The notes below the pieces were generated by a model, which made no database searches, had not been told where the DNA came from, and worked only from the letters and a program-made list of their open reading frames with translations. The translations under genes were made by a program, and so were the position numbers. This document shows, in pieces, positions 25,208 through 59,352 of a DNA stretch of 64,000 bases (position 1 is the stretch's first letter; every line of letters starts with the position of its first letter). Source of the stretch: an uncultured Hormoscilla sp. (GTDB lineage: Bacteria > Cyanobacteriota > Cyanobacteriia > Cyanobacteriales > Desertifilaceae). The stretch is taken from the NCBI GenBank assembly GCA_963921275.4, contig OZ001293.3, forward strand, positions 5,536,001-5,600,000, read 5' to 3'.

Positions 25208-28200
25208 ATGACAATATCTAAAGGTGAGACAAACCTCTCTGAGTTAGAGCGAGCGATCGCGCTTTATCAGACAGCACTAGAGACCATTGAGTCAGCAAAA
25301 CTAGGGCCGTCAAAAGCACAAGCAATGGAAGTGATCGCGGCCCGGGATGCAGTTCAGGCCGCCCTCAATGAAGAACCATTGGATGGGGTCGAGCCGGGAA
25401 TCGCTTCCCGACCCTCCCTTTCGGAACCGGATTTGCGATTTTCACCGCATCCGGCTACTGGGTACTAGGCCCTTTTCATAGGTAGACTTAATAGGAATTA
25501 CTTCCGTTAGCCCTTGCCGCCTGTCTTTTCTTCCCTTTCCTGGTTTAGCGAGTGGTTGTTCTGATAACCGTTAGTATCACCATTTTCAAGTCAGTTTTAC
25601 CAGTTATCCATACCTTATCCTCCACTTGCGTTTCGGATTAGTTCCGTGGCTTTTTAGGATTACTCATTCCAGCAGCTTCCTAGTATCACCGACCCACGTC
25701 AGCGCTGGCTACCCAGCATCATCTACATTACTGTAGATGTTATCCCAGGAATTACCCCGGGCATTCGCTTCTTGGGCCATCCCTCCCCCCGTGGCTTGCG
25801 CTTAACATCTAACTTGTCCTGATGGACAGCACACGAGAGGTTACTTCGTTCCCTAACAACATTTCGCGATACCTTTAGGTCCACACTATACCCCGGGAGC
25901 TATTTGAGTACTATATTAGCCAGAGTCTAAAACTAATACTAGCTACCATTTCCTTTTTAGGCCAGCGCATATAGCCTTATTTCGCTGGTTCCTTATAACG
26001 AGGCTTGCACATGTTTGCCTGCTCTAACCTTGGATATCTTTCCTAGCGGCGTCACCGGCTTAGGCTGCCAGTTATCCTACATTTGAGTCCTCGCTTAGCA
26101 CCACGATGATGTCGCTTCGTAGCACCGAGGACCGGTGTCACCCCCGTACCTGGGGGGAGGGGAATTTAACCCCCATGCGGTCAGAGTTCCCGGCTAATGA
26201 AACCGGGCTAGCGTTCCGTGTTTGACCACGTTAGGCTAGAACGAATCGCACAGACTCCGCCAAGAGTAGAGCAACTGTCTGTGAGTTGGATAGCAGGTTG
26301 AAAAAACAGGAAAAGGCGATCGCCAGCGCTGGTCCGTTGCCGGAATGGCGCGAGAGCTTGCAGCCACCAGAGTCAGCTTGGTGGTGGTTTTTCTAACCGC
26401 CGATCGACCGGTAGATGCGATTCGACTGGTTGTGGAATGCCTTGACGATTAGCGCCTTAGCATTGTCTGCTAGCTTGATCATGACTACTCTACAGTCTTT
26501 GGCGATCAAAGGATTGACCTGGCAACAGTCCTTTGGAGCCATTCTTCAGGGAGCCGGGTTGGCGGCGATCGGATCCAGCGCACTGACGTCAGAAGGACAG
26601 CAAAAGGTGAGGAACATTCTTAAGAAGACCGGCGTGCCCGAGCGTTTCCAGAGCGAGGCCACTCTGATTGTCTCATTAATGGTGTTGGGAGGTGTCTACA
26701 GCCTGTACAATTTCTTGCCCGGTCGTTTATACGAAAATGGGCTCTCAAGTTATCGGCAGGGGGAGTTGTCCGATGCAGAGGAAAATTTCTTACAGGCGCT
26801 CGAACTGAAACCCGATGATGAGAGGAGCAACATTGCTCTGGGAGAAGTTTACGAATCTATAGGCGATCTCGAAAAGGCGATCGCCCAGTACAAGCAGGCA
26901 TTATCATCGGGCAATCCCAAAGCCTTTAACAACCTGGGGCGCGTGTATATTGACAGAATTGACCCCATCCTAAGAAGGAAAACTTTCTCCTCGCTGAGAC
27001 CTACCTACGGATAGGCTTGCAGCGTGCCAAGGGCACCCGGGAGGAGCCAGATTTGAATGAGGATCCCGATTCCAATAATCCCAATAATATTAAATATGAA
27101 TTGTATAGGAACCTGGGCTGGGCGCTGTTGGAGCAAAAAAAATATCCAGAAGCAGAGTCGGCACTGAAAAAGGCAATTGAATTTGACAATCAGACCCCCG
27201 AATTGCAGCTCGGCTCGGCCATTTCTGAGTGTCTGCTAGCGAAGCTATACAAAATTCAGGGAGATAAGCAACAGCGACAGATGAACTTGAGAGAGTGCCG
27301 GATGCTAGCCCGTCCGGAAACCTTAAATGAATACAAACGGTTGGTTCAGGATGAAGGTATAATGGCAGACTGCATCGACACAACTTTGATCGTCACGGGT
27401 CTGGACAAACTGCCCGTGGAATTTAATGAGTATTGTCGGGCATTGGCTGTGAAGAAACCACTAACAGCACTGACCGATCCTGCTCAAATAGAAGCTTTGG
27501 GGCAGAAGCTGTCAGAAAAAATTCAGCATGCGCTCGTTCCTCATGACAAACGCGCCTTTATCAATGGCAATTTAGTCTACTGGGTAACTGTGGGCGCAGG
27601 AGGGGATGTCATCGCCTTGGAGCCGACGAATAAACTGGCATCTGATGGAGTCCAATATACTCCCCTATTTGCCTTGTTAGAGTCAAATGCTACCCAAGAT
27701 GCTCTGGCTATATTCCAAGTAGTGTTTTCTCCTGACGGTTCCTTTAATGTCAACCCCTTGTCAGAGGAGTCCAAATCTCTAGCAGAGCCCACCTACCATG
27801 CCCCCCGGACGCACGGCGAAAACCCGGGGGGCACGGCCGGAAAAATCGGAAACCCCTCAGGTAAAAACAATTACTGAAGATCCAGCTAAAATAGAAGCTT
27901 TGAGGGTAAAGCTTTTTGATGAAATTGACCGCGTTCGCGTAGCGTGCGCGCAGCGTGCGCGCAGCGCATACTTGGCGCATCGTCCCCAGTTTCAATCAAA
28001 ATTTAGTCTACCAGGTGAGGGTGGACGTACCGTTCCGGAAAAATCGGGGGGCGATCGTCTCCTACGAACCCAAAATTCAACTGGCCTCTGACTTTGTCGT
28101 TCGCGTAGCGTGCGCGCAGCGCATAGAAATTCCCCTCCCCCAATTAGTTTCCCAAAATGCCACCGCGATGTCTCCTGTGTGCTGTGCGCGCAGCGTGGCG

Positions 28201-28316
28201 CAGCCATGTCCCCTGGGACAAGAGCTCTGGCAGAGATATCGAATCGACATAAGGCTCAATTCAAGGTAGTGTTCTCGCCTTTTGGAGCCTTGGAGGTCAC
28301 TCCCTGGCAGCAGTAA
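25208..28316 (+). pseudogene. Membrane-anchored TPR protein, disrupted by an antisense intron, stops, frameshifts and repeat insertions
   Basis: The frame rejoins across the intron (EEPL|DSAKS..WWWFF). Stops occur at 26394 and 26412. TPR motifs lie in 26415-27877, and the duplicated C-terminal domain is filled with small repeats. Confidence 0.8.
25381..26251 (-). mobile_element. ORF-less group II intron, family A, copy 1 (871 bp)
   Basis: 5' GTGCG, domain V AGCCGGATGCG-GTGAAAAT-CGC..TCCGGTT and a domain VI hairpin. There is no RT ORF, and it is near-identical to the two other copies. Confidence 0.95.
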
Positions 28317-28550
28317 GCAGGTAGACCATTGTTCCTATGTTCGTAGTAAGGACTTTAGTCCTTGCCCTCCGGAAGCACGAAGCGTGCTTACTACAAACGG
28401 AAAGCACTTTCTTCCTTGCCCAAGGTAAGCACGAAGCGTGCTTACTACTATGTATACGAACTGCTACGCAGCAGCTAGTGCGCGTAGCGCTATTAACAAA
28501 TTGCGATGGCAAGCACGCTAGCGCTGACGCTGCTACGCGAAACGTGCTGA

Positions 28551-58410: not shown

Positions 58411-58439
58411 AAAAAAATCAGGGCGACAACGCCCTGATT
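58411..58439 (-). terminator. Rho-independent terminator
   Basis: On the minus strand, aatcagggcg-ttgt-cgccctgatt is followed by a T run. Confidence 0.75.
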
Positions 58440-58517
58440 ATTGCAAACATGGAGTAGAACAACAATTTATCTAGTGCTGCGTTTAACCCTCACAAATCCA
58501 ACAAGTAGATCCGTGCA

Positions 58518-59352
58518 GTGCGATTCGTTCTAGTCTAACGTGGGCAACTACGGAACGCTAGGCCAGGTCCAAACTGGTAACTCTGGTATTCATGGGGGTT
58601 AGATTCCCTCTCTCCAAGTGTGGGAGTAACACCGGTCCTTAGTGCTGCTGAGTCACATCACGGTGGTGCGGAGCAAGGACTTAAATGTAGGATAGCTAGC
58701 AGCCTAAGCTAGTGACGCCGCTAGGAAAGATGCTAATGGCTAGAACAAGCGAACCTGTGTACGCCTCGTTATCTAGAACCAGCGAAATAAGGCTTAAAGC
58801 GCTGGCCCAAAAGGGAAATGGTAGTTTGTGCTGGTTCTTGCACTTGGCCAGTATCGCACTCTAAGAACTCCCGGGGTATAGCAGGGGCCTAAAAGCATCG
58901 TGAAATGATACTAGGGAACGAAGTAACTTCTCGTGTGCTGTCTAGATTGGACAAGTTAGATGTAAAGCGCAAGCCGCGAGGGGAGAGATAGCCCGAGAAG
59001 CTAATGCCTAGGGTAACGCCTATGGATATGATGGGGTGTTCCTCATCCAGCTGACGCGGGTTGGTTAAAGTAGGAAATCTTGGGTAAGAGTATCTCTAAG
59101 ACGCCGGAGGCCTCTCGAAGGTTGGATGACTGGTAAAACAGACTTGGAAATGGTAATACTAAAGGTTATCTGGCAGCGCCGCTTACCAACCAGGAAAGGA
59201 GTGAAATCGCATGAGATGAGGGACAAGTGGAGCAATCCGTAGTAATCCTAGTAGTGACAATGCCCTACTTGCCAGTAGCCGGATGCGGTGAAAGTCGCAC
59301 GTCCGGTTCCGAATGGGAGGGTTAGGGGGTGACCCCTAGCTCGACCCCGACT
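58518..59352 (+). mobile_element. ORF-less group II intron, family B, copy 2 (835 bp)
   Basis: Essentially identical to 44677-45511; one difference was seen in domain VI. Confidence 0.95.

Follow-up and report, generated by a model that had tools for sequence, protein, structure and literature searches.

Group II introns that lack an open reading frame (ORF) of their own have been described in several cyanobacteria. Thermosynechococcus elongatus carries 28 introns, which make up 1.3% of its genome, and its TeI3 elements are 85-100% identical to TeI4 and keep ORF remnants (PMC2882425). In Trichodesmium erythraeum, 17 introns were shown to splice, 10 of which are ORF-less and close kin of their helper (PMC4649490). 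For Arthrospira platensis, a maximum of 101 group II introns was reported (PMC8919778), and for its strain NIES-39 at least 150, of which 71 contain a reverse transcriptase (RT) gene (PMC2853384). Here, we describe ORF-less group II introns of two families, A and B, found in a 64-kb stretch of DNA (the window, C1:5536001-5600000) from a Hormoscilla genome (G000; 7.03 Mb in 7 contigs, 96.7% complete) that contains 436 complete introns. We conclude with considerable confidence that these introns belong to an old, genus-wide ORF-less group IIB lineage, and that A and B recently multiplied, likely by retrohoming via the RT of a resident RT-coding clade.

A search of the window with the Rfam model RF00029 returned five matches, at 25383-25459(-), 32218-32294(-), 37238-37314(+), 45433-45510(+), and 59274-59351(+), which scored 42-47 bits with a cut-off of 40. 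Self-BLAST revealed three copies of family A (871 nt), two copies of family B (835 nt), and one 343-nt 5' fragment of a third family. The same five copies and one fragment had been proposed in a first-pass annotation made from the letters alone, and exact empty sites found elsewhere in the genome agree with the lengths given there. The two families are ~72% identical to each other. Window copies of A differ by 5-7 nt and those of B by 1 nt, all five introns begin with GTGCG, which conforms to the GUGYG 5' end of group II introns, and their flanks are unrelated; the earlier description of near-identical copies at unrelated sites thus stands, as does the claim that the window contains no RT gene, since none of the 93 RVT_1 matches of the genome falls inside C1:5536001-5600000. 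The fragment has a 5' end, lacks domain V, and finds its nearest match (91%) in a third ORF-less family. It holds an inserted 20-nt repeat (window 35586-35605) with 77 exact copies on C1, which we take to resemble the very small dispersed repeats of cyanobacteria. The intron density of the window is ordinary, the genome mean being 4.7 domain V/VI motifs per 64 kb. The introns and the genes they interrupt are as follows (window positions).

25381..26251, minus strand: family A ORF-less group IIB intron, 871 nt, antisense in a short 118-aa ORF visible after in-silico excision
32216..33086, minus strand: family A ORF-less intron, intergenic by ORF scan
35467..35809, minus strand: 5' fragment (part of domain I) of the third ORF-less family, holding the short dispersed repeat
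36446..37316, plus strand: ORF-less intron of family A, antisense to a Ser/Thr kinase gene and located in its 3' part, at codon 428 of 475
36702..36706, plus strand: exon-binding site 2 (EBS2) of family A (UAAGG), pairing with target consensus CCTTA at -13..-9; position via offset in a same-length copy
36769..36774, plus strand: EBS1 of family A (AGACUC) in the d3 loop, pairing with target consensus GRGTCT at -6..-1; position via offset in a same-length copy
37238..37316, plus strand: domain V (AGC triad, GAAA loop, all paired) and domain VI, ending in CC, 9 nt from the presumed branch A
37229..38602, minus strand: Ser/Thr protein kinase ORF, now running into the antisense family A intron (ORF scan)
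43212..44676, plus strand: exon 1 of gltB (glutamate synthase large subunit), GATase_2 domain
44677..45511, plus strand: family B ORF-less intron, 835 nt, on the gltB strand; the 1571-aa frame is restored only by exact removal of 835 nt
45512..48762, plus strand: exon 2 of gltB (Glu_syn_central, Glu_synthase, GXGXG)
58518..59352, plus strand: family B ORF-less intron, intergenic, upstream of an opposite-strand major facilitator superfamily (MFS) gene

In each of the five introns, domain V (AGC triad, two-base bulge, GNRA loop) is followed by domain VI, as judged by the RF00029 scores and a pairing check, and genome-wide domain V is intact in 142 of 144 A copies and in all 72 B copies. The longest open stretch is 63 aa in A and 57 aa in B, leaving no RT ORF in domain IV, and no protein-level RT remnant was found in either family by blastx. 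Folding of whole introns was uninformative (z of -2.7 for A and -0.4 for B). Group II introns as a rule end in AY, with the branch A at -7 or -8. The 3' ends of families A and B are variants of this: they terminate in CC and CU, respectively, 9 nt from the presumed branch A, and the same spacing recurs in an RT-coding intron of G007, a member of another genus of the family. The boundary was placed here because four lines of evidence agree. For 32 of the 138 A copies and 11 of the 72 B copies, the exact empty site occurs elsewhere in the genome, mostly within other introns and repeats, and the number of such sites falls to zero once the 3' boundary is shifted by 1 or 2 nt; the gltB frame reads through only at this boundary; in 36 of the 37 families parsed (of 59), the final base of the intron is paired with the gamma base of J2/3; and a contig from a relative (RNA run X22) lacks exactly the 899 nt called as the intron of the enolase gene eno. 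A 3' end one base earlier, with canonical spacing, was ruled out by the empty sites, the gltB frame, and the gamma pairing. Comparison of flanks revealed no target-site duplication at A or B insertions. As a separate observation, recurrent multi-base substitutions common to several families were seen in conserved intron motifs on C1; one A variant of this kind is the majority form in short reads and hence real, and a 6-mer scan left these changes without explanation.

The first-pass annotation had extrapolated from the window to hundreds of copies genome-wide, and a census, in which an iterated domain V/VI profile was followed by pairing of 5' and 3' ends, confirmed this. The profile gave 501 matches in the genome, all on C1, and none in the reversed genome; the motif set is therefore not due to chance. 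The 436 complete introns (65 of the introns are nested, and there are 72 orphan 5' and 65 orphan 3' ends) comprise 367 RT-less elements shorter than 1100 nt (84%), 57 with RT homology, and 12 longer RT-less ones that are probably unresolved nests. Together, they span 477 kb, or 6.9% of the chromosome (~10% when fragments are included). Clustering at 92% identity produced 117 clusters, of which A (145) and B (72) are the largest. Mean pairwise difference is 1.9 nt in A and 2.5 nt in B, and 61 of 122 same-length A copies are identical; since this is half of them, the A burst must be recent. Shared flanks, which the annotation had listed as a possible sign of segmental duplication or misassembly, do not account for the copies: the 138 A copies have 121 different pairs of flanks and the 72 B copies have 62, with some flanks recurring up to 7 times. 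The genome contains four head-to-tail tandem intron pairs; head-to-tail A copies form a triple at C1:5447656-5450268 and a double at C1:824934-826675. Such an arrangement is consistent with re-insertion at an occupied target, tandem copies being a known product of retrohoming (PMC12584367). Family B is skewed between strands (50 plus versus 22 minus, p 0.001) along most of the chromosome, while A is unskewed and the GC skew is flat.

The two families differ in their targets. Family A inserts after GRGTCT, with CCTTA at -13..-9, the RNA partners being AGACUC and UAAGG; family B inserts after AGYGYA (RNA partner UGCACU), with a weaker CTAGA-like signal (RNA partner UCUAG). Pairing of EBS1 and EBS2 with the corresponding intron-binding sites (IBS1 and IBS2) of the 5' exon, as expected of subgroup IIB, was present; EBS2-IBS2 pairing was read by eye, and that of EBS1 was assessed by permutation. 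In the 16 of 67 families whose loop could be extracted, EBS1 matched its own targets at 4.8 of 6 positions, versus 3.1 +/- 0.2 after permutation (maximum 4.0, 1000 permutations). At the first position of the 3' exon (+1), where EBS3-IBS3 pairing would take place, 96 of the 138 A copies and 67 of the 72 B copies have an A. An A at -15 is enriched in targets of A (95/138), B (49/72), and RT-type introns (27/50), and the T. elongatus TeI4c protein reads A at -14 and -15 (PMC3706431). To judge by the sequences, this is the pattern left by reverse splicing in which RNA guides the choice of target and the protein constrains it little. Target information amounts to ~11 bits.

Genes interrupted by introns were identified by in-silico excision and crude ORF calls, and were named by scanning 101 of 131 same-strand and 47 of 68 antisense exon pieces, duplicates and short pieces being dropped. 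Family A has 41 same-strand, 29 antisense, and 46 intergenic copies, and family B has 23, 8, and 26, respectively. The young families are genic as often as their target motif predicts (A 70/116, B 31/57), and older introns are depleted from ORFs (85/198, Fisher p 0.004). In ORFs of at least 200 aa, same-strand insertions outnumber antisense ones (78 versus 43, p 0.002 against 50:50). Same-strand splits in which profile coordinates continue over the junction were found in nrdJ, eno, prfC, zwf, gltB, ectB, and ectD; recJ, ribD, and queG are also split on the same strand. The first-pass annotation had overlooked both the family B copy inside gltB and the splitting of core genes outside the window. 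Genes hit in antisense are mostly accessory or duplicated, e.g., pstS and putP. The introns of nrdJ (C1:848632-849545) and eno (C1:1800238-1801136, 899 nt) are same-strand and ORF-less, with domain V paired. In a genome search, nrdJ was the only ribonucleotide reductase gene found, with no match to class I or III enzymes, and eno was present in a single copy. The products of both genes are expected to be essential, and single-copy core genes split in this way would depend on splicing. At these sites nrdJ and gltB are uninterrupted in four congeners and eno in three; eno of congener G004 (C14:9456-11915; L089/L090) is split by an RT-coding intron at a different codon, an independent invasion of the same core gene. 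The X22 RNA contig that skips the 899-nt eno intron was considered as evidence of splicing and rejected, as it comes from a ~93-94% identical relative that may lack the intron; it does confirm the boundaries. Beside the gltB intron, a 28-nt repeat lies in frame in exon 1 (window 44581-44663), just 5' of the intron; it has 6 copies on C1, including those at 42567 and 42884, and contigs from runs X1, X3, and X4 carry ~30 extra nt at this place that are missing from the assembly.

The first-pass annotation had also supposed that an RT encoded elsewhere drives the introns, and intact RT genes were indeed found. RT-coding introns are ~2.4 kb long, and among the 52 RT-type introns longer than 2.2 kb there are 19 whose ORF is uninterrupted, reaches 540 aa or more, and encodes YADD. 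One resident RT protein was examined and contains RVT_N, RVT_1, GIIM, and HNH domains, its best solved relative being maturase 6me0 (E 1.7e-114). The YADD RT, maturase, HNH endonuclease, and kinship to the T. elongatus maturase place the resident RTs in the CL class, and the 19 uninterrupted ones are candidate drivers. In an RNA tree, the bootstrap of which is not fully settled, 59 ORF-less families and 9 Hormoscilla copies fall on one side of a 100/100 branch, with the RT-coding introns and their few deletion derivatives on the other; RNA identity between the sides is 46-57% (about 52%). No RT homology was found in the complete elements of the genome census with the main ORF-less 3' ends, and the 33 matches in 29 named Hormoscilla loci, several of which are truncated, showed no RT in the stretch from the 5' end to domain V. 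The ORF-less introns are an old separate clade rather than fresh deletions of RT-coding introns, which strengthens the comparison with short interspersed nuclear elements (SINEs) made in the annotation. The start of A domain IV aligns with the ORF-start region of RT introns, beating 60 of 60 shuffles. Other RT types of the genome (e.g., C1:1775402-1777204) have no ORF-less-type 5' RNA. An antisense A copy is present in 8 of 9 copies of the largest RT family, where it mostly cuts the ORF from 600 to ~486 aa; many of these copies occupy one common site and are not independent events. Family A thus inserts into its likely helpers, and the resident RT-coding clade is the likely driver of A and B.

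The anatomy of the introns, their number, their precise insertion with no duplication of the target, and guide loops that match the insertion sites of each family were observed, and on this basis the spread of A and B can be pictured as follows. The intron RNA would splice as a lariat and, by way of a segment resembling domain IVa, would bind in trans to a resident CL-type protein with RT, maturase, and HNH parts. The complex would reverse-splice into DNA that matches the ~11 bits of target information, and the inserted RNA would then be copied to DNA. Young families would land almost regardless of genes, because ~340-2200 motif matches per family still remain in the genome. Selection would then likely purge most harmful insertions, and core genes such as nrdJ and eno would retain a same-strand insertion only by virtue of splicing. 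Thermosynechococcus and Trichodesmium already provide examples of such a mechanism; what is new here is the scale and the proposed distant driver. A bolder version, to which we give an even chance, is that the cell is midway through an invasion like that proposed for early eukaryotes. An old ribozyme lineage, its own protein lost in the whole genus, would have taken over the RT of a distant clade to serve generally in splicing and mobility; it would outnumber that clade ~6:1, disable the endonuclease of its helpers through antisense insertions, and make ribonucleotide reductase and enolase of the cell dependent on trans-assisted splicing.

Several results weigh against spread and splicing with the help of the resident RTs. 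A closely related RT-coding intron, of the kind that TeI4 is for TeI3, is absent from the genome, and pairing of A and B with the resident RTs falls short of proof, because the RNA identity cited above is far below the 85-100% of T. elongatus. Domain IVa likeness is absent in B, whose score is reached by 25 of 60 shuffles, and just 14 of the 52 families score above all 60 shuffles. Of the 160 ORF-less copies outside A and B, 98 have a domain V that does not pass a strict pairing test, many older copies being mispaired. The same-strand bias is modest overall and not significant when each family is compared with its motif expectation (A p 0.33, B p 0.19, older introns p 0.06). EBS1 pairing at the gltB target is weak, and the genome has a second glutamate synthase that is intact; the family B copy in gltB may be a knockout and not a spliced intron. 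Finally, insertion polymorphism, which the annotation had proposed to look for in reads, was not observed: contigs of runs X1-X4, which drop rare variants, contained no empty allele for two sites in the window or for eno.

Three other explanations were weighed. A cognate RT-coding parent of A and B might have spread them and since been lost, or might lie in an unassembled replicon, the resident RTs not being the driver. This would fit the low RNA identity of A and B to resident RT introns and the 96.7% completeness of the genome, and the RT-coding intron of G007 (L140), whose domain V/VI is ~90% identical to the ORF-less type, implies that autonomous relatives exist. However, the 5' RNA of the G007 intron is ~50% identical to A and B, its protein has no full-length match above 60% in 13 other genomes of the family, and no RT was found in the complete elements with the main ORF-less 3' ends or at the 29 Hormoscilla loci, some of them truncated. 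Moreover, the burst is very recent, so the loss of the parent would have to be equally recent, and we consider this explanation improbable.

Spread at the DNA level, through recombination, gene conversion, or carriage in mobile elements, of splicing-dead copies that merely disrupt genes would explain the nested elements and recurring flanks, and antisense A copies in genes are indeed about as frequent as chance predicts. The precise ends at mostly unique sites, the family-specific EBS-IBS pairing, the gamma-gamma' covariation, the intact domain V of A and B, and the splitting of single-copy nrdJ and eno make it very unlikely, and gene conversion may still help to keep copies alike. Inflation of the copy number by misassembly could be suspected from the single large contig, produced by an unknown sequencing method, and from the four tandem pairs. 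It is already largely refuted and has next to no probability left: in short-read contigs (three samples, one study), depth relative to flanks is ~120-200x on A and ~70-85x on B, a rough measure that gives no true copy number and comes from runs that may include the assembly's own source; contigs of X2-X4 cross both eno junctions by 29 nt with zero differences; tandems are known from retrohoming; and congeners share the lineage. Retrohoming of an old ORF-less lineage via resident RTs is therefore the explanation that we prefer.

The distribution of the introns in relatives was determined with sequence patterns. One domain V pattern gave 343 matches in the Hormoscilla genome; four congeners had 47, 29, 26, and 1, and none of 56 other relatives had more than 11; draft assemblies collapse repeats, yet congener G002, with only 6 contigs, accounts for the 26. 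A generic pattern, which misses family A, gave 136 matches versus at most 25 across 400 genomes of the phylum, a sample rich in small genomes. Congeners carry the same ORF-less lineage, and a lineage-specific pattern matched only Hormoscilla records (29 loci) in a species-wide collection; the introns of five other genomes (G014, G225, G028, G167, and G057) have only domain V in common with it. In A. platensis NIES-39, RF00029 gave 88 matches. In a search of the main texts of open-access papers, we found no published account of the Hormoscilla intron expansion; the word 'intron' does not occur in the main texts of PMC6520454 and PMC7313196. Elsewhere in the genome and window, the 31-kb contig C3 has a GC content of 17.6%, versus 42-49% in the other contigs, and is possibly foreign DNA, and several 6-bp palindromes are strongly avoided on C1 (observed/expected down to 0.02), which suggests many restriction systems. 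An 84-bp tandem repeat of ~4 copies lies between genes at window 22305-22682, and a lone weak CRISPR-DR28 match just past gltB (window 48815-48838) is possibly a terminator-like hairpin.

Bacterial examples so far have 28-150 introns, and the load described here is three to five times the largest published count that we found, with the caveat that counting methods differ. Because young and old families coexist here, a single cell allows the insertion of introns, their purging, and their fixation in core genes to be measured, the intron-free alleles of congeners being ready controls. For gene targeting, the introns are also a natural source of RTs with relaxed specificity and of many different guide specificities. 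Genomes of this kind are liable to mis-annotation (split eno, nrdJ, and zwf), and short-read assemblies conceal their intron load.

Among the described systems, the TeI3 (ORF-less) and TeI4 (RT-coding) introns of T. elongatus, of type IIB1/CL, resemble those of Hormoscilla in the ORF-less majority, the divergence of EBS into families, the occurrence of twintrons, the A at -15/-14, and a CL-type protein with endonuclease that acts, in Hormoscilla presumably, in trans. They differ in number (28 introns and 1.3% of the genome versus 436 complete introns and 6.9%), and, unlike TeI3, the Hormoscilla ORF-less clade is ~52% identical to the RT clade and has no protein remnant in A or B. Many Hormoscilla copies, moreover, lie in protein genes, including core genes, and the host is probably, to judge from its relatives, a marine mesophile, unlike T. 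elongatus. Trichodesmium introns are also reported by Meng et al. 2005, as cited in PMC12584367. As in Hormoscilla, ORF-less introns of Trichodesmium occur in housekeeping genes, with a ribonucleotide reductase gene among the hosts; they are spliced by an RT encoded in another intron. The introns shown to splice in Trichodesmium number 17, 10 of them ORF-less, against hundreds with predicted splicing in Hormoscilla. A. platensis NIES-39 is, like Hormoscilla, a filamentous cyanobacterium whose large genome is heavily loaded with group II introns (at least 150, of which 71 contain an RT, or 101; Hormoscilla has 501 motifs and 436 complete introns, and short RT-less elements make up 84% of the latter; methods differ). 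The eukaryotic pairs of SINEs and long interspersed nuclear elements are an analogy to the Hormoscilla introns, which do not belong with them: in both cases, RNAs that encode no protein outnumber, and likely parasitise, an autonomous element with an RT. Unlike SINEs, the Hormoscilla introns are self-splicing-type ribozymes that find targets by base pairing, with no poly(A) tail and no target-site duplication. Models for the origin of spliceosomal introns presuppose that group II introns multiplied, lost their ORFs, relied on shared splicing factors, and interrupted essential genes (PMC4424553).

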